Shown here piece after piece: positions 18,173-57,584 of a stretch of 64,000 nucleotides of DNA (positions are counted from its first letter, which is position 1; the number at the start of each line of letters is the position of its first letter). Below the pieces are notes generated by a model. It ran no database searches, was not told where the DNA came from, and saw only the letters and a list, made by a program, of their open reading frames with translations. The stretch comes from an uncultured Candidatus Saccharibacteria bacterium. GTDB lineage: Bacteria; Patescibacteriota; Minisyncoccia; Minisyncoccales; GWA2-38-27. The translations under genes and the position numbers were made by a program. The DNA is taken from positions 12,746 through 76,745 of the forward strand of contig CAYMZK010000004.1 in the NCBI GenBank assembly GCA_964394985.1. The letters are read 5' to 3'.

Positions 18173-18318
18173 CACTTCGTGAGCTTATAATGTCTTAAAT
18201 TTTATATGTTTTGAGCTTTATTTCGAGTTCGAGGCACAGTATGTGATTTTTATCTTATTTATTTAATAAGAATAATTTCTTAATCTTAATTCTTACTTTG
18301 TTTTTTCTAAATATTCTG

Positions 18319-18628
18319 TCTAGGTTCAGATACATATGATACGCTCGCTCAGTTAATGTAATTAGGTTGCTCGGCTTGGCCGAGCAACCTAACGAGGAGC
18401 GTCTAGGTTCAGATAGATATTACACATCTGATTTTGTCCGATTGACCGGTCAATGGGACTATTTTTAGTATGAAGGTAGTATGAAGGTTGAACCTTCATA
18501 TATTGTGTTTTCATTGTTGTGCTCCACCTGGTGGAGCACAATGCTCCACCAGGTGGAGCACAATCGGGCGGAGCACTATGTTTTTCAAGGGGTTAGGTGT
18601 ATCATATCATATGGACCAGTACAAGCAC
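18319..18628 (+). repeat. modular multi-hairpin intergenic element, long copy (type B)
   Basis: Shares its ends and several modules with 57297-57470. Contains a 14-bp stem at 18362-18392, palindrome ATTGACCGGTCAAT at 18441-18454, hairpin ATGAAGGT-TGA-ACCTTCAT and tandem GTGCTCCACC/GGTGGAGCAC palindromes. Confidence 0.85.
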
Positions 18629-18656
18629 TTGACATGGGGGTATAATTTGCTATAAT
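18629..18656 (+). promoter_or_regulatory. sigma70-like promoter (TTGACA-16-TATAAT)
   Basis: TTGACA at 18629-18634 and TATAAT at 18651-18656. Homologous in position to the tRNA-operon promoter at 57471-57499. Confidence 0.7.
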
Positions 18657-18756
18657 GGAGGCAATAGGTAGATAATCTGTATAAACTACGGGTTATGCTC
18701 TACGTGTCAATCAAAAAGGTCCTTTTCGGGATCTTTTTGTTTTGATATAATTAACT

Positions 18757-18843
18757 CGTGGACTCGGGCTCGTAGTTTTATGTAGTTAAAATTCTACCTT
18801 TGACACGTAGAGTAACGGGTGCAAATCCCGTCGAGTCCACGCA
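18757..18843 (+). ncRNA. tRNA-like structured RNA element (non-canonical)
   Basis: 10-bp perfect helix CGTGGACTCG (18757-18766) / CGAGTCCACG (18832-18841). It directly abuts a T-arm-like hairpin ACGGG-TGCAAAT-CCCGT (18815-18831). The D and anticodon regions do not fit a cloverleaf. Confidence 0.4.
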
Positions 18844-18852
18844 CGCACCTAA

Positions 18853-18882
18853 TTGACATTGCTTCGAGTATGGAGTTATAAT
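18853..18882 (+). promoter_or_regulatory. sigma70-like promoter (TTGACA-18-TATAAT)
   Basis: TTGACA at 18853-18858 and TATAAT at 18877-18882. Confidence 0.55.
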
Positions 18883-18885
18883 GAA

Positions 18886-19034
18886 AGTGGACCCTGTGGT
18901 TGTTTGTTAATTCTGGACTATATAGATATATAGGGAATTCCATATAGGCACTTGCCTTGGTAAGTGCTTGCGAAATCCCACTTGGAATTATTTTCCTTAG
19001 AATTTTCAAATATACGCAGGGTTCCGTTTTTTTT
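18886..19034 (+). ncRNA. candidate ~145-nt small RNA with paired 5'/3' ends and U-tract
   Basis: GGACCCTG (18889-18896) pairs with CAGGGTTCC (19017-19025), followed by T8. Internal hairpin GCACTT-N8-AAGTGC. No plausible ORF on this strand. Confidence 0.35.
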
Positions 19035-27541: not shown

Positions 27542-28024
27542 ATGAAAGTTCAAAGTCAGTTAAAATATTTAAGAATTGCACCAAGAAAGGTTAGATTAAT
27601 GGCCGATATGATTAGAGGGAAAAAAGTTGAGGAAGCTCAAACAGCTTTAAGCTTTACTGTTAAAAAGTCATCTGAGCCATTATTAAAACTTTTAAATACT
27701 GCTATTTCTGACGCAAAGAATAATTTTCAGTTAGACCCAAGTAATTTAATTATTTCTGAGATAAGGGTTGATGGCGGTCCAATATTAAAAAGATGGAGAG
27801 CTAGATCAAGAGGGATGGTGGCTCCGATCCAAAAGAAAACTTCCCATGTCACTGTAATTTTAAATGAAATAGAGGCTGGAAAAAGAATTAAAAAGAAAGA
27901 AGTTAAAAAAGAAGAAAAGGTAATTAAAGAAGAAAAACCCAAAACCAAAAGACCGGTAATTGAAACACCAAAGCCAAAATCATCTAAGGGATTAAAAAAG
28001 ATATTTAGAAGAAAATCCATATAA
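27542..28024 (+). CDS. rplV: 50S ribosomal protein L22 (Lys/Glu-rich C-terminal extension)
   Basis: LRIAPRKVRLMADMIRGKKVEEA...RWRARSRGMVAPIQKKTSH. Confidence 0.95.
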   Translation: MKVQSQLKYLRIAPRKVRLMADMIRGKKVEEAQTALSFTVKKSSEPLLKLLNTAISDAKNNFQLDPSNLIISEIRVDGGPILKRWRARSRGMVAPIQKKTSHVTVILNEIEAGKRIKKKEVKKEEKVIKEEKPKTKRPVIETPKPKSSKGLKKIFRRKSI

Positions 28025-28137
28025 AATGCCAATCTACAAATGATACGCAAATACTACGAATTTTCAGGAAAATTATTAATTATTTAAATTATTCGTATCA
28101 TTTGCATAAATTCGCATTAAATTAGCATTATAACACT
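28025..28137 (+). repeat. type A ~110-nt hairpin element, copy 1 (between rplV and rpsC)
   Basis: Near-identical to 31923-32039, with 4 substitutions. 11-bp stem CAAATGATACG (28037-28047) / CGTATCATTTG (28094-28104). Phased GCATWA triplet near the 3' end. Confidence 0.9.
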
Positions 28138-28782
28138 ATGTCACATAAAGTACACCCAAAAGCTTATAGAATTAAAGGATTAAGTGATTGGCAGTCACGG
28201 GGTTTTTATAATAATCCAGCTATTCAACTAGAAGAAGATTATAAAATAAGAGAATATTTAACTAGAAAATTAAAGAGTCTTGGCGTTGAAAAAATAGAGA
28301 TTGAAAGATATACCAACAAAATGAATATTATTATCTTTAGCTCTAGACCAGGATTAATTATTGGAAGAGGGGGTGAAGGAGTCGAAAAACTTAAACAAGA
28401 ACTAGAGAATAAGATTATTAGACCAACAAAAAGGAAGTTTGAATTAAGGTTAGAAATTAGAGAAATTAAAGATCCGTGGACTTCTGCTAGTTTAAGTGCT
28501 CAGTCTATTGCTCAGCAAATTGAAAAAAGAATGCCTTATCGAAGAGTGTTAAAGCAAGCCTTAAGTAAAATAATGACCCACAAAGAAATTAAAGGAGCTA
28601 GAATCCAAGTTTCTGGAAGATTAAATGGAGTAGAGATCGCTAGAAGAGAGTGGGTTGGAAAAGGTCAGCTTCCCCGTCAAACAATTAGAGCGGATATTGA
28701 TTATTACCAGGTCAACGCAGTTTGTTCTTATGGAGTGATTGGAGTAAAAGTTTGGATATATAAAGGTGAAAAATTTGAATAA
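28138..28782 (+). CDS. rpsC: 30S ribosomal protein S3
   Basis: MSHKVHPKAYRI...GRGGEGVEKLK (KH domain)...GRLNGVEIAR. Confidence 0.96.
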   Translation: MSHKVHPKAYRIKGLSDWQSRGFYNNPAIQLEEDYKIREYLTRKLKSLGVEKIEIERYTNKMNIIIFSSRPGLIIGRGGEGVEKLKQELENKIIRPTKRKFELRLEIREIKDPWTSASLSAQSIAQQIEKRMPYRRVLKQALSKIMTHKEIKGARIQVSGRLNGVEIARREWVGKGQLPRQTIRADIDYYQVNAVCSYGVIGVKVWIYKGEKFE

Positions 28783-31922: not shown

Positions 31923-32039
31923 AAAAAATGCCAATCTACAAATGATACGCAAATACTACGAATTTTCAGGAAAATTATTAATTATTTAAATTATTCGCAT
32001 CATTTGCATAAATTCGCATTACATTTGCATTATAACAAT
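31923..32039 (+). repeat. type A ~110-nt hairpin element, copy 2 (between rplF and rplR)
   Basis: Near-identical to 28025-28137, in the same orientation and the same position relative to the downstream ATG. Confidence 0.9.
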
Positions 32040-32360
32040 ATGTTAGAGAAAAAAGTTAAAAAAAATAGAAGACATAGAAGGGTTAGAGCTAAAATTAAAG
32101 GAACAGCTGAGATTCCAAGGCTTTGTATTTTTAGATCTAATAGGTATATTTATGCTCAAGCTATAAACGACGATAATGGTCAAACTTTAATGAGTGCTAA
32201 AGGAGAATTAACTAAGGCTAAAGATGTTGGTCAAATTATCGCCAAAAAGGCTTTAGAGAAAAACATTAAGAAAATAGTCTTTGATCGAGCTGGATATAAA
32301 TATCATGGTCGAGTTAAAGATTTGGCTGAAGGAGCTCGTGAAGCTGGATTAAATTTTTAA
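32040..32360 (+). CDS. rplR: 50S ribosomal protein L18
   Basis: [31 protein letters not shown]...[27 protein letters not shown] at 32040 is preferred; the track start lies in the repeat. Confidence 0.95.
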
Positions 32361-45187: not shown

Positions 45188-45207
45188 CCGATTGACCGGT
45201 CAATCGG
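45188..45207. promoter_or_regulatory. perfect 20-nt palindrome CCGATTGACCGGTCAATCGG between divergent promoters; candidate operator
   Basis: Read directly. The core ATTGACCGGTCAAT recurs at 18441-18454. The plus-strand promoter TTGACT (45209-45214)-17-TAAAAT (45232-45237) follows. Confidence 0.55.
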
Positions 45208-47372: not shown

Positions 47373-47510
47373 CCCCGTAGAGAAATTTCAATACATTCGC
47401 TGTAAGCGAATAAAAGAATACGGGGAATAATAAAGTATAATTAATAAATAGAAAAACAAACATAAGAATTTCAAGAAAGATGAGCAAACTAATTGAAATT
47501 CTTCTACGGG
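47373..47510 (+). mobile_element. CCCCGYAGA-TIR MITE-like element, full-length copy 1 (upstream of murA)
   Basis: Differs from 52208-52346 by 2 substitutions and 1 terminal nt. TIRs CCCCGTAGAGAAATTTCAAT / ATTGAAATTCTTCTACGGG. Flanked by ACATG (47368-47372) and ACATG (47511-47515). Confidence 0.8.
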
Positions 47511-47512
47511 AC

Positions 47513-48790
47513 ATGGAAGAAAAATTTATCATCAAAGGAGGAATTCCTTTAAAGGGAGAAGTAGGAGTAAGAGGAGCTAAAAATGCCGCCTTTCCAATTT
47601 TGGCCGCTTCTTTACTAACCAAAGAAACTTGCACTATAGATAATTTACCTTTAATAGAAGATGTCTTAAAGATGATCAGGATTTTAGAAAATATGGGTGC
47701 TGAGATTTCTTGGGTTGGCAAAAGAAAAATAGAAATAAATTGTTCTAAGATAAAGCCTTCTAAAACACCTTATGATTTAGTAAAATGTTTTCGAGGCTCT
47801 GTTTTGTTGTTGGGGGGATTGTTGGGAAGATTTAATAATGTTAGAATTCCTAAGCCAGGAGGTTGTGTTATTGGTTCTCGTCCAATTGATACTCATCTAG
47901 ATGCTTTTGATCAGTTAGGGATAAAGATTCACAAAACAGGCCAGTTTTACAATTTTAAAAAGAATAAAGATAATAATTCTAAAGAAGTTGTTTTAAAAGA
48001 AATTAGCGTTACGGCCACTGAAAACGTTTTACTCTATGCCACTAGTAACTCTAAACAAAAAACAACTCTTAAAATAGCCGATCAAGACTATCAAGTTCAG
48101 GATTTAATTAGGGTGTTAGAGAAAATGGGAGCTAGTATTAAGAATACCGGGATTAGGGAATACGAAATAACTGGTAAAAACAACTTAAAGGGTTTTAGTC
48201 ATAGTATTGTTAATGACCCTATTGAGGCCGGAACTTTCATTGTTGCGGCTTTAGCTACTAATGGAGAAGTTTTGGTTAAAAATGCCGAGTTGCAATATTT
48301 AGACTTGTTTCTAAAAAGATTAAAAGATTTTGGCGCAAAGTATAAAGTGATAGACGCAAAGACAATAAAAGTTTTACCTTCTAAAAAAGATTTAAAAATA
48401 GACAAAATTCAAAGCTTGCCTTATCCAGGAATTCACTCAGATCTTCAGCCGGAATTAGGGGTATTAGCTACTCAAACTAAAGGACCGACAATGATTCATG
48501 ATCCGCTTTTTGAAGGAAGATTAAGATATTTAAATGAGTTAAACAAAATGGGAGCTGATATCATTTTTTGTGATCCTCATAGAGCGATTGTTTATGGTCC
48601 TACTAAACTTCAGGGAGCTAATATCCCAAGTTTAGACTTAAGAGCAGGAGCAGCAGTGATTATTGCCGGTTTGATTGCTAAAGGTACGACTAATATAAAT
48701 AATATTTATCAAATTGATAGGGGTTATGAAAAAATAGAAGAACGTCTTAGTGATTTGGGGGCTGATGTTAAAAGGAGAATTAAAAAGTAA
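47513..48790 (+). CDS. murA: UDP-N-acetylglucosamine 1-carboxyvinyltransferase
   Basis: MEEKFIIKGG..LKGEVGVRGAKNAAFPILAASLL aligns to the MurA N-terminus (MDKFRVQG...ISGAKNAALPIL). The track start at 47480 lies inside the repeat. Confidence 0.93.
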   Translation: MEEKFIIKGGIPLKGEVGVRGAKNAAFPILAASLLTKETCTIDNLPLIEDVLKMIRILENMGAEISWVGKRKIEINCSKIKPSKTPYDLVKCFRGSVLLLGGLLGRFNNVRIPKPGGCVIGSRPIDTHLDAFDQLGIKIHKTGQFYNFKKNKDNNSKEVVLKEISVTATENVLLYATSNSKQKTTLKIADQDYQVQDLIRVLEKMGASIKNTGIREYEITGKNNLKGFSHSIVNDPIEAGTFIVAALATNGEVLVKNAELQYLDLFLKRLKDFGAKYKVIDAKTIKVLPSKKDLKIDKIQSLPYPGIHSDLQPELGVLATQTKGPTMIHDPLFEGRLRYLNELNKMGADIIFCDPHRAIVYGPTKLQGANIPSLDLRAGAAVIIAGLIAKGTTNINNIYQIDRGYEKIEERLSDLGADVKRRIKK

Positions 48791-52207: not shown

Positions 52208-52346
52208 CCCCGTAGAGAAATTTCAATACATTCGCTGAAAGCGAATAAAAGAATACGGGGAATAATAAAGTATAATTAATAAATAGAAAAACAAATATAA
52301 GAATTTCAAGAAAGATGAGCAAACTAATTGAAATTCTTCTACGGGG
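52208..52346 (+). mobile_element. CCCCGYAGA-TIR MITE-like element, full-length copy 2 (between rseP and proS)
   Basis: TIRs CCCCGTAGAGAAATTTCAAT / ATTGAAATTCTTCTACGGGG. Flanked by TATGA (52203-52207) and TATGA (52347-52351). Confidence 0.85.
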
Positions 52347-52347
52347 T

Positions 52348-53538
52348 ATGAGACAATCAAATCTTTTTTACAAAAGCTTAAAAGAAACACCTAAGGATGC
52401 TGAGGCCATTTCTCACATCCTTTTGTTAAGAGCCGGCTTTATTGATCAAACAGCAGCCGGAATTTTTAGTTTTTTACCTTTAGGATTAAAGGTTTTAAAA
52501 AACATTGAAGAGATTATTAGAGAAGAAATGGAAGCTGTTGGTGGTCAAGAAATTTTAATGCCGGCCTTAACTCCAAAGGAAAATTGGGATAAAACTGGAA
52601 GATGGGACGCTTTTGATGTTTTGTTCAAGTTAAAAGGAGGAAACAAAAAAGAGTATGCTTTGGGTCCAACTCACGAAGAAATAATTTCTCCCTTGGTAAA
52701 AAAACATATTTTATCGTATAAAGACTTGCCTTTTTCTTTGTTTCAAATTCAAACTAAATTTAGAAATGAATTAAGAGCCAAATCCGGGCTTTTAAGAACA
52801 AGAGAGTTTTTAATGAAAGATCTTTATTCTTTTCATATTGACCAGAAAGATCTAGATAACTATTACGAGAAAGTTGCCAAAGTTTACTTTGGGATTTTTA
52901 AAAGATGCGGATTGAAGGTGTATAAGACTCTAGCTTCTGGTGGTAGTTTTTCTAAATATTCTCATGAATATCAGGTAATAACTGGAGCTGGTGAAGATGT
53001 AATTTATCTTTGTGATAAATGCGGAATAGCTATAAACAAAGAAATAAAAGAGAAGAAGTGTCCTGAATGTGGCGGGACTAAATTTAAAGAAACTAAAGGA
53101 ATAGAGGTGGGAAACATTTTCAAATTAAAAGATAAATATTCTCTTCCTTTCCAACTAACCTTTAAAGACAAAGATGGTAAAGAAAAACCAGTTTTAATGG
53201 GTTGTTATGGAATTGGTCTAAGTCGAGTATTAGCCGCTATAGTTGAAACCAATAATGATGAGAATGGAATTATTTGGCCAAAAGAAGTAGCTCCTTTTGA
53301 TATTCATTTAATTTCTTTGAATAACATTAAGGCCGATAAAATTTATTCTAAATTAATTAAAGAAGGAAAAAGAGTGTTATACGATGATAGAAAAGAAGTT
53401 AGCGCTGGTCAAAAATTAGCCGAAGCTGATTTAATTGGAATTCCGGAAAGATGGGTGGTGAGCAAGAAGACTTTAGCTAAAAAATCAGTTGAAATTAAAA
53501 AAAGAAATCAAAAGAAAGTAAAATTGACAAAGATCTAG
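52348..53538 (+). CDS. proS: prolyl-tRNA synthetase, bacterial-type N-terminus, INS editing domain absent (396 aa)
   Basis: MRQSNLFYKSLKETPKDAE aligns to ProRS MRTSQYLLSTLKETPADAE. FRNELRAKSGLLRTREFLMKDLYSF. A CDKC...CPEC knuckle sits where INS normally lies. The track start at 52315 lies in the repeat. Confidence 0.9.
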   Translation: MRQSNLFYKSLKETPKDAEAISHILLLRAGFIDQTAAGIFSFLPLGLKVLKNIEEIIREEMEAVGGQEILMPALTPKENWDKTGRWDAFDVLFKLKGGNKKEYALGPTHEEIISPLVKKHILSYKDLPFSLFQIQTKFRNELRAKSGLLRTREFLMKDLYSFHIDQKDLDNYYEKVAKVYFGIFKRCGLKVYKTLASGGSFSKYSHEYQVITGAGEDVIYLCDKCGIAINKEIKEKKCPECGGTKFKETKGIEVGNIFKLKDKYSLPFQLTFKDKDGKEKPVLMGCYGIGLSRVLAAIVETNNDENGIIWPKEVAPFDIHLISLNNIKADKIYSKLIKEGKRVLYDDRKEVSAGQKLAEADLIGIPERWVVSKKTLAKKSVEIKKRNQKKVKLTKI

Positions 53539-56752: not shown

Positions 56753-57287
56753 GATTTATCAGTTAGCAGATCTCTCAACTATTTATTATGCTAATTTTTT
56801 AGAAATAATAAATTCTCAAAACTTTATTTTTTTTCTAAAGGCCATTTTTTTAATTATTAGTTTATTGCTTTTGATATTAATTGCTGTTCTTTTTAAAAAA
56901 ACAAAATGGTTTAAAGATATTTATGGTGAAAACTTAGTGGAATTTGTGGCTAGTAGACCTTATGGGGTTCAAAAGACTTTTAAAGATTGGGGAAAGATTG
57001 TTAGTAGAATCAAGGGGGAGAAAGAAGAAGATTACAAAATGGCTATTATTGAAGCCGATGACTTATTAAAAGAAATTCTTTTAAAGATGAACTTTAAGGG
57101 AGAAACTATGAACGATCTTTTATCTCAAGTAGATGAAAAGAGTTTGCCTAGTATTGAAGATGTTTATTATGCTCATGGACTTCGTAATAATATAGTTCAT
57201 AATCCTGATTATGATTTGAATATAGATCATGCCAAGAAGTCCTTGAAGATCTATGAACAAGCCTTCCGTGACCTTCAATTATTTTAG
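56745..57287 (+). CDS. hypothetical membrane protein
   Basis: One TM helix followed by a helical cytoplasmic domain. No family recognised. Confidence 0.5.
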
Positions 57288-57296
57288 AGAACTCTA

Positions 57297-57470
57297 TCTA
57301 GGTTCAGATACATATGATACGCTCAGTTAATTTATTACGTTTGGTAACTGGGTTGCTCGGCTTGGCCGAGCAACCCTGGGACTATTTTTAGTATGAAGGT
57401 TGAACCTTCATATATTGTGCTTCAAGGGTCTTTTGGTGTATCATATCATATGGACCACCAGTACAAGAAC
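57297..57470 (+). repeat. modular multi-hairpin intergenic element, short copy (type B)
   Basis: Collinear with 18319-18628 minus three inserted modules. Closing helix CATATGATAC (57311-57320) / GTATCATAT (57438-57446). Confidence 0.85.
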
Positions 57471-57499
57471 TTGAGTTTTTTTCTTTAATATACTATAAT
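57471..57499 (+). promoter_or_regulatory. tRNA-operon promoter (TTGAGT-17-TATAAT)
   Basis: TTGAGT at 57471-57476 and TATAAT at 57494-57499. The first tRNA nucleotide lies about 6 nt downstream. Confidence 0.7.
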
Positions 57500-57504
57500 G
57501 GTTG

Positions 57505-57575
57505 TGCGGGGTGGAGAAGTAGTATCTTGTGAGGCCCATAACCTCAAGACGCGGGTGCAATTCCCGCCCCCGCAA
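57505..57575 (+). tRNA. tRNA-Met(CAT), initiator-like, with atypical D- and T-loops; no encoded CCA
   Basis: Cloverleaf folded by hand. Acceptor TGCGGGG/CCCCGCA, D-stem GAGA/TCTT (A11:T24), anticodon loop CCCATAA, T-arm GCGGG-TGCAATT-CCCGC. Resembles E. coli tRNA-fMet ends (CGCGGGGTGGAG...CCCCCGCAA). Confidence 0.7.
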
Positions 57576-57584
57576 CAAGCATGA

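Follow-up and report, generated by a model that had tools for sequence, protein, structure and literature searches.

Two palindrome-rich intergenic segments are probably decayed MITEs of an IS481-like family that inserts 5 bp upstream of sigma70-type -35 boxes

The window (the whole stretch of DNA analysed here, 64 kb in length) has a base composition of 33% G+C, and the closest homologues of its proteins are found in Patescibacteria/Parcubacteria. Two palindrome-rich segments were examined within it. As the initial annotation had reported, each is located between the stop codon of a gene and a promoter, and at both loci the promoter is of the sigma70 type (18629-18656 and 57471-57499). The features are listed below by window position; IS denotes the related full-length insertion sequence, IRL its transposase-proximal end, IRR the opposite end, and TSD a target-site duplication.

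18317..18623, minus strand: probable long composite MITE, 307 bp; both termini match the IS, no transposase coding sequence
18317..18342: outer IRR, TGTCTAGGTTCAGATACATATGATAC, intact, 26/26 identical to the left end of the full-length IS
18362..18392: hairpin M3 of the long copy, about -24 kcal/mol; filler that is also found in the short copy
18400..18437: internal second IS left end (CGTCTAGGTTCAGATAGATATTACACATCTGATTTTGT) with subterminal IS sequence
18436..18459: palindrome M4, GTCCGATTGACCGGTCAATGGGAC, with TTGACC on both strands; operator-like
18468..18501: 11-nt duplication GTATGAAGGTA, then hairpin M6 (18479-18501), terminator-like on the plus strand
18517..18576: M7, tandem GTGCTCCACC-N-GGTGGAGCAC hairpins, long copy only
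18577..18623: IRL and subterminal IS sequence; IRL proper at 18599-18623, intact, 25/25 against the right end of the IS at locus L003
18624..18628: AGCAC, the 5 bp separating the IRL from the -35 box; no matching copy on the left
18629..18656, plus strand: host promoter TTGACA-16-TATAAT (12/12, with TG); a leader RNA and an unusual tRNA-Ser lie downstream
45188..45207: independent perfect 20-nt palindrome CCGATTGACCGGTCAATCGG, upstream of a 229-aa gene; relative of M4
57288..57292: left TSD copy AGAAC, directly after the stop codon TAG (57285-57287)
57293..57465, minus strand: probable short MITE, 173 bp, degenerate tips
57348..57378: hairpin M3 of the short copy, 12 bp, G-C at the base
57391..57413: hairpin M6 of the short copy, terminator-like on the plus strand
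57466..57470: right TSD copy AGAAC
57471..57499, plus strand: host promoter TTGAGT-17-TATAAT of a tRNA-Met/tRNA-Met/tRNA-Asp cluster

Alignment of the two segments confirmed that they are collinear, with four blocks identical in both: TCTAGGTTCAGATACATATGATACGCTC (28 nt), GGTTGCTCGGCTTGGCCGAGCAACC (25 nt), TGGGACTATTTTTAGTATGAAGGT...TTGAACCTTCATATATTGTG (about 43 nt) and GGTGTATCATATCATATGGACCA (23 nt). The three extra modules that had been described for the long copy are all present and are found in that copy only. The first (18393-18454) brings the palindrome at 18436-18459 as well as another TCTAGGTTCAGATA, at 18402, the second (18468-18489) is the 11-nt duplication, in which 18468-18478 adjoins 18479-18489, and the third (18517-18576) consists of the tandem hairpins. 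The limits of the segments required correction, from 18319-18628 to 18317-18623 and from 57297-57470 to 57293-57465, and the last five nucleotides of the earlier spans (AGCAC and AGAAC) are target DNA rather than part of the element. Within the corrected limits the terminal inverted repeat is imperfect and 18-26 nt long. Both tips of the long copy (TGTCTAGG...CCAGTACA) are intact. In the short copy the left tip reads TCTATCTAGG in place of TGTCTAGG, and the right inverted repeat is interrupted by a 3-nt insertion, CCA.

To identify the source of these ends, the left-end motif TCTAGGTTCAGATASATATKAYAC was scanned against one genome per species. At the 11 loci recovered, TG+TCTAGGTTCAGATACATATGATAC marks where a longer element terminates, and this element has a transposase gene oriented towards the motif; the hosts were Paceibacterota, Minisyncoccales, Saccharibacteria and Staskawiczbacteria MAGs, and Minisyncoccus archaeiphilus. 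Ends of this parent IS were present in more than 120 metagenome contigs, and a scan of metagenomes with the right-end motif TGTATCATATCATATGRACCAG returned at least 120 loci. In one MAG at least four contigs break off about 100 nt from the left-end motif, as contigs do at a repeat. In the 64 kb two copies were seen, and Logan contigs from the source sample stop inside both of them.

Complete IS copies measure 1113-1118 bp. The copy at L003 (1115 bp) ends on the right in GTATCATATCATATGGACCAGTACA, a sequence that the long window copy repeats at its right end without a mismatch (25/25), and the left end of the long copy is identical at 26/26 positions to full-length IS copies. The left tip of the IS reads TGT(C/A)NA in 56/56 copies and the right tip ends in ACA. 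A single 346-aa ORF fills the element, intact in 51 of the 62 copies examined, and its product carries HTH_28/HTH_32, rve and rve_3 domains (Pfam); a sigma70 region-4-like domain was sought in the transposase and gave no Pfam match even at E<=5. The best NCBIfam model was IS481 (E about 1e-60, profile positions 2-283 of 284), about 100 bits above the IS3 model. The five proteins scored 203-217 bits, below the curated cut-off of 224, and judged on these sequence scores they may represent a divergent IS481-like clade. At E<=1e-20 the transposase recovers at least 1,940 clusters, which public sources name only generically.

A tblastn search with this transposase found none in the 64-kb window, and both copies hold chance ORFs only. 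What the two segments retain of the IS is about 26-45 nt of IRR on the left and about 38-48 nt of IRL on the right, placed around filler that is not IS sequence; on the IRL side the retained sequence extends to about the former start codon of the transposase. Because their ends match IS termini and the window encodes no transposase, we read both segments as MITEs, and because the transposase-proximal end lies at the right they are placed on the minus strand by IS convention.

The filler is made of hairpins. The M3 arms are perfectly complementary over 14 nt in the long copy and 12 nt in the short copy when located with a repeat finder, and in the minimum-energy fold the stem (GGTTGCTCGGC) comprises 13 and 12 pairs, respectively; the A-T versus G-C difference that had been reported at the base of this stem is real. 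Searches for M3-M7 allowing up to three mismatches found no match in 131 IS-bearing loci (about 630 kb), and the filler is therefore foreign to the IS. M3, M6 and M7 have no copy elsewhere in the window, and viral contigs gave 0 matches for the IS right end, M3, M6 and M7. An independent MITE of 258 bp at locus L111 has the same ends, an unrelated filler and a TSD (CGGGC), and it too adjoins TTGACA. Since its filler is unrelated and that of the window is unmatched elsewhere, the filler appears to be lineage-specific. Elements at two further loci, L118 (641 bp) and L129 (895 bp), look like internal-deletion derivatives because they are shorter than the 1.1-kb IS yet keep transposase-coding sequence.

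The segments could instead be structured RNA (a 3'-UTR domain or a small RNA), with a 9-bp helix closing a fold that is under selection. Both strands do fold far better than shuffled sequences (z = -5 to -12), with a modest advantage in stability for the plus over the minus strand (-139 versus -122 kcal/mol for one copy and -62 versus -52 kcal/mol for the other), and the A-T to G-C change at the base of M3 is compensatory. However, any palindromic DNA yields such z-scores on both strands, and two copies with one compensatory pair are too few for statistical covariation. The 9-bp helix itself, which the initial annotation had proposed to close the whole domain, does exist; it belongs to the terminal inverted repeat of the IS, as its inner portion, and brings no evidence of an RNA fold. 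Furthermore, no Rfam family was matched at the gathering threshold, with only hairpin noise at E<=1, and the filler of the L111 element is wholly different. We therefore consider selection for an RNA structure very unlikely.

The segments had also been likened to REP/BIME elements, that is, dispersed host palindromes maintained by a RAYT-type enzyme or by selection. Several perfect hairpins do lie in intergenic DNA, and M4 (CCGATTGACCGGTCAATGG) has a near-identical independent copy in the perfect palindrome at 45188-45207. Against this, the hairpin modules are not dispersed: M3, M6 and M7 are absent from the rest of the window, the related loci and the viral collection searched above, and IS ends delimit the units, with a TSD at the short copy. 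A REP/BIME origin is thus highly improbable. An additional resemblance, to the arms of a "type A" element (28023/31925), did not hold, as only the 9-mer ATGATACGC is shared; we treat this match as chance because about 0.4 such matches are expected in 128 kb from a composition estimate.

Returning to the reading of the segments as MITEs, the suggestion that they are nested MITEs was correct as to the class of element and correct in part as to nesting, since the long copy holds a second IS end. A search for independent occurrences of the modules had been proposed, and such occurrences were found: the TCTAGG module also occurs elsewhere, as the end of a full-length IS, the CCGATTGACCGGTCAAT palindrome is found again at 45188, and the GTGCTC.ACC hairpin is a stand-alone gene terminator in the closest relative. 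The internal IS left end (18400-18437) is 82-88% identical over 26-39 nt to dozens of IS left ends (blastn). M7 agrees at 21/23 positions with a terminator that stands alone in the closest relatives (L139/L140); one pair is compensatory, and in these relatives the terminator directly follows the orthologous kinase-like gene in the order gene, hairpin, promoter, ncRNA. Compared with that locus the window has about 680 extra bp, made up of 144 nt, the MITE, the promoter, the leader and the tRNA-Ser; the 144 nt, which separate the stop codon from the long copy (18173-18316), gave no informative match. M7 is followed by TATGTTTTT, M6 scored as terminator-like on the plus strand in both copies, and neither gene upstream of the MITEs has another terminator.

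The long copy is thus a mosaic that combines a further IS end in its interior with an operator-like palindrome and with hairpins that look like terminators. Simple nested insertion is ruled out, because the long copy has one extra IRR and no extra IRL. One possible history, which we propose tentatively, is that two successive insertions occurred at one promoter and were followed by a deletion, the short form then arising through further deletions. Among the fetched loci no tandem arrays of IS or MITE copies were found at a single promoter, and a tandem-insertion origin is therefore without direct precedent. Alternatively, the long copy may have arisen by capture of filler DNA. M7 resembles the native terminator found after the orthologous gene in relatives yet sits inside the inverted repeats. 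Its position there points to a more complicated history of the long copy.

To define where the parent family inserts, right ends from the metagenome matches listed were combined with the genome loci, giving 106 distinct right flanks. Among these, the IS tip (...ACA) is followed by five variable base pairs and then by TTG at +6 to +8 in 95/106, with TTGAC at the same place in 73/106, and a -10 box (TANNNT) follows at a spacer of 16-18 nt in 87/106. Base frequencies across the hexamer T-T-G-A-C-A were 96, 97, 90, 82, 73 and 60% in these 106 flanks. Both boxes matched at five or more of six positions in 60 of the 106 flanks listed, compared with 18 of 29,973 random positions on the same contigs. 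The target consensus is thus TTGACA-17-TATAAT, a sigma70 promoter. The left flanks contained TTGAC in 0/54 cases, with no second target motif detected. When loci were instead retrieved through the protein, independently of any DNA pattern, TTGA was present at +6 in 21/21, and the gene adjoining the IRL was divergent in every locus that had such a gene. Exact 5-bp TSDs (e.g. AGGTC, TATCA) were found in 13 of 50 two-ended copies. One left flank was joined to different right flanks in different contigs, indicating that most of the "missing" duplications are assembly chimeras across the repeat, or recombinants.

These data show that the elements insert in one orientation, which places the IRL upstream of a promoter that was already there, at 5 bp from its -35 box. 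The rule is drawn from surviving natural insertions and may have been made sharper by selection, although selection can account neither for single-base precision nor for a fixed orientation.

Both copies in the window follow the rule. At the long copy the junction reads GTACA/AGCAC/TTGACA, without a target duplication (TATTC on the left, AGCAC on the right). At the short copy it reads GTACA/AGAAC/TTGAGT, and the full site (TAG/AGAAC/element/AGAAC/TTGAGT) shows the 5-bp TSD on both sides; here the entire spacer between the stop codon and the -35 box was the 5-bp target, duplicated on insertion. Corresponding empty sites were identified in relatives. For the short copy, at L141 and L144 the orthologous gene (176/177 aa) is followed by 35 nt (L141) or 4 nt (L144) and then, with no element present, by TTGATT-17-TATAAT and a tRNA-Met gene. 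For the long copy, the promoter at L133 (TTGACA..GTAT..TTTGCTATAAT) has the same leader and tRNA-Ser downstream and lacks the element. Taken together, the observations on ends and sites indicate that both segments are very probably decayed MITEs of the IS481 family, and that the parent family targets a site 5 bp upstream of a sigma70-type -35 box. Both window copies adjoin strong promoters because this is where the parent family inserts.

The same sites bear on a reading in which a regulatory region upstream of stable-RNA promoters has been duplicated to give the two segments, with factor-binding sites or UP elements common to both through descent or selection. Such a region would account for the location of both copies upstream of tRNA or ncRNA promoters and for the operator-like M4; however, the orthologous promoters of relatives lack the segment, and its ends are IS ends. 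Moreover, no preference of the family for tRNA or stable-RNA promoters was detected, as a tRNA lay within 400 nt in only 2/88 flanks and the downstream genes were mostly protein-coding. We hold this explanation to be scarcely probable.

Outward -35 boxes or whole promoters are supplied by many IS families, and TTGACA always lies at a fixed distance from the IS end, but a promoter carried by the IS or MITE itself and activating its neighbours is barely credible here, since the IS tip is separated from TTGACA by the 5-bp duplications, the sequence beyond TTGACA is unrelated between sites, and the empty sites, where the same promoters occur in relatives without the element, already contradict it. 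Outward promoters of this kind are discussed elsewhere (bioRxiv 10.1101/2022.12.17.520857).

We propose that the IRL would integrate exactly 5 bp upstream of a sigma70-type -35 hexamer and duplicate those 5 bp, leaving the host promoter to read away from the element. Such placement would spare both the upstream ORF and the core promoter, providing a safe harbour in genomes where intergenic space is almost absent. The MITEs would presumably have been mobilised in trans by a full-length copy elsewhere in the genome, and transposition may proceed by a copy-out/paste-in route. Read outward, the IRR tip is TAGACA (TGGACA in the TGTCCA variant), and TATGAT lies within the IRL, 12 nt from its tip; with a 5-bp spacer, a circle junction is therefore predicted to create a promoter (-35, 17 nt, -10) facing the transposase gene. 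A promoter at the circle junction is a hallmark of copy-out/paste-in elements and has been described for related IS (bioRxiv 10.1101/2022.12.17.520857). The predicted junction also puts a -35-like hexamer 5 bp from the IRL tip. The short copy is likely to be immobile now because its tips are degenerate, and the filler hairpins M3, M6 and M7 may at present serve to stop read-through from the upstream genes.

As to what the IS recognizes, the landmark might be sigma70 or RNA polymerase bound at the promoter, or the DNA bend that it induces, rather than the letters TTGACA alone; we regard this as somewhat unlikely. The conservation gradient of the -35 box at insertions resembles what we take to be sigma70's own -35 preference. 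Among 15 insertions with a weak -35 box, eight are still correctly spaced from a good -10 (background 3.5%); three of these eight have an extended TGn -10, and in two of the three the hexamer is TTTTAG. The -35-like hexamer of the predicted circle junction is a further hint. The gradient and the weak-box insertions fit recognition of a polymerase-bound promoter, and they equally fit selection for harmless sites. It was noticed post hoc that TGTCAA, the complement of the target hexamer, agrees with the IS tip TGTCTA at 5/6 positions, and no reliance was placed on this match.

With these assignments the odd "palindrome cluster" becomes an ordinary pair of MITEs whose position is explained. The MITEs themselves, one a fossil (short) and one a mosaic (long), are new members of an ordinary kind of object. 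The target rule of the parent family illustrates how genomes of about 1 Mb, with hardly any DNA to spare, can keep hosting a transposon, and each insertion provides an independent promoter marker in uncultured CPR bacteria, amounting to about 100 promoters among the matches listed. Within the literature covered, which lay outside ISfinder and most subscription journals, we found no report of an IS targeting -35 boxes and no link of IS481 with CPR/Patescibacteria. Base-precise, oriented targeting of the -35 box by the parent IS family is probably new.

Among known systems, the IS481 family is described as having TGT...ACA termini and a TSD of 2-15 bp (PMC10045372). The parent IS resembles members of this family (IS481, IS1002) in its length of about 1.1 kb, its single transposase, a DDE enzyme with an rve core and an HTH at the N terminus, its TGT...ACA tips and its short TSD. 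It differs from most members, which have a 6-bp TSD, in duplicating 5 bp, and strict placement 5 bp upstream of a -35 box is absent from the family features that we found described.

The closest parallel in target geometry is the ISAba32 subgroup of the IS1202 family, which inserts next to XerCD sites, leaving 5 bp between the target and the IRL and generating a 5-bp direct repeat. Its authors discuss a safe haven as the rationale, as well as circular intermediates, and they cannot yet separate protein-directed from sequence-directed targeting (bioRxiv 10.1101/2022.12.17.520857). The elements described here share the 5-bp distance between IRL and target motif, the 5-bp direct repeat and the fixed orientation. 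In contrast to the XerCD/dif-like sites of ISAba32, their target is the -35 box of a promoter, and their hosts are CPR bacteria. They are also distinct from IS1202 at the protein level, scoring 212 bits with the IS481 model and 47.6 bits, against a cut-off of 250, with the NCBIfam ISNCY_2 model, which we assume to represent IS1202-type transposases. IS1202 was formerly filed under ISNCY (bioRxiv 10.1101/2022.12.17.520857) and branches within IS481 in one phylogeny (PMC10045372). Considered with ISAba32, the present family suggests that a targeting design of the form "IRL + 5 bp + landmark" can be reused among IS481/IS1202-type transposases, and such a design could serve programmable or safe-harbour insertion.

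Like other bacterial MITEs (MITEAba12, Correia/NEMIS, those of Coxiella), the two window copies are short, non-coding, intergenic and hairpin-rich, with the inverted repeats of a parent IS and, at the short copy, a TSD. Unlike these, their position is set by promoter targeting, and one copy is a mosaic with an additional IS end and apparently host-derived hairpins.

REP sequences reportedly serve as a recurrent harmless intergenic landing site for IS1397/ISKpn1 and for the IS110-family elements ISPpu9/ISPpu10. Here the landmark is a functional transcription signal and not a repeat, and the enzyme is of the DDE type, whereas the IS110-family elements rely on bridge-RNA-guided DEDD recombination.

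Finally, the yeast retrotransposons Ty3/Ty1 and Tf1 integrate at a fixed distance upstream of transcription starts and so leave the coding DNA of compact genomes intact. If promoter-bound polymerase were the landmark, the present family would be a bacterial counterpart of Ty3/Tf1-type promoter tethering, and targeting through RNA polymerase would make it, to our knowledge, the first known bacterial transposon tethered to the transcription machinery. Ty3/Ty1 and Tf1 differ from it in being eukaryotic retroelements, whose integrases are tethered by transcription factors.

The leader driven by the promoter adjoining the long MITE copy is ~80 nt in length and finishes with a terminator (18712-18739). 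Downstream of this leader lies an odd 75-nt 'tRNA-Ser(UGA)' (42 bits with Rfam tRNA), which lacks a long variable arm and whose anticodon loop has 9 nt. The leader and this tRNA are perfectly complementary over 13 nt, leader positions 18698-18711 (GCTCTACGTGTCAA) matching tRNA-Ser positions 18800-18812 (TTGACACGTAGAG), and the pairing is maintained through covariation (GCTGGGTGTCA / TGACACCCAGC) in the relative L133, where the unit occupies another genomic location; it is not present in the relatives L136 and L139. Beyond this unit a second 12/12 promoter (TTGACA-18-TATAAT) precedes an ncRNA of ~155 nt closed by GGACCCTG...CAGGGTTCC. This ncRNA, for which Rfam holds no matching family, is conserved between the kinase-like gene and rpmB in L133, L136 and L139. 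These features and the others considered here are as follows.

18664-18840 (L133: 6275-6066, minus strand): leader and odd tRNA-Ser unit
18853-19033: second promoter and conserved ncRNA
18392 and 57373: ends of the Logan contigs L001 and L146, respectively
47373-47515 and 52208-52350: 143-nt repeat, copies 97% identical
28023-28149 and 31925-32051: 127-nt repeat, copies 94% identical
45188-45207: perfect 20-nt palindrome
L141 3126-3318 (also L144): group I intron in tRNA-Met

Both Logan contigs, from source sample SRR7048227, terminate within the M3 hairpin, one in each MITE copy. These ends suggest assembly breaks at a repeat or strong hairpin, and the source genome possibly carries copies additional to the long and short ones.

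Other repeats were present in the window. The 143-nt repeat has inverted ends of ~20 nt (CCCCGTAGAGAAATTTCAAT...ATTGAAATTCTTCTACGGGG), with the next ATG starting 2-3 nt beyond each copy, and it looks like another MITE-like family. The 127-nt repeat, termed 'type A' in the initial annotation, extends to the next ATG in both copies; the only sequence it has in common with the long and short MITE copies is the 9-mer ATGATACGC. The palindrome (CCGATTGACCGGTCAATCGG), near-identical to the M4 module of the long copy, has the appearance of an operator; it precedes by ~40 nt a 229-aa gene whose product ends in the Cys-rich motif CRYCQYRSVC.

In the relatives L141 and L144, the anticodon loop of the first tRNA-Met in the cluster holds the group I intron (Rfam Intron_gpI, 93 bits); the window counterpart (57505-57576) is intron-free. 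Finally, the only cultured host among the matches was Minisyncoccus archaeiphilus PMX.108, whose chromosome (L011) carries a decayed copy of the parent IS of the two MITEs: no TTGACA adjoins it, its right end contains five mismatches and its transposase is in fragments.
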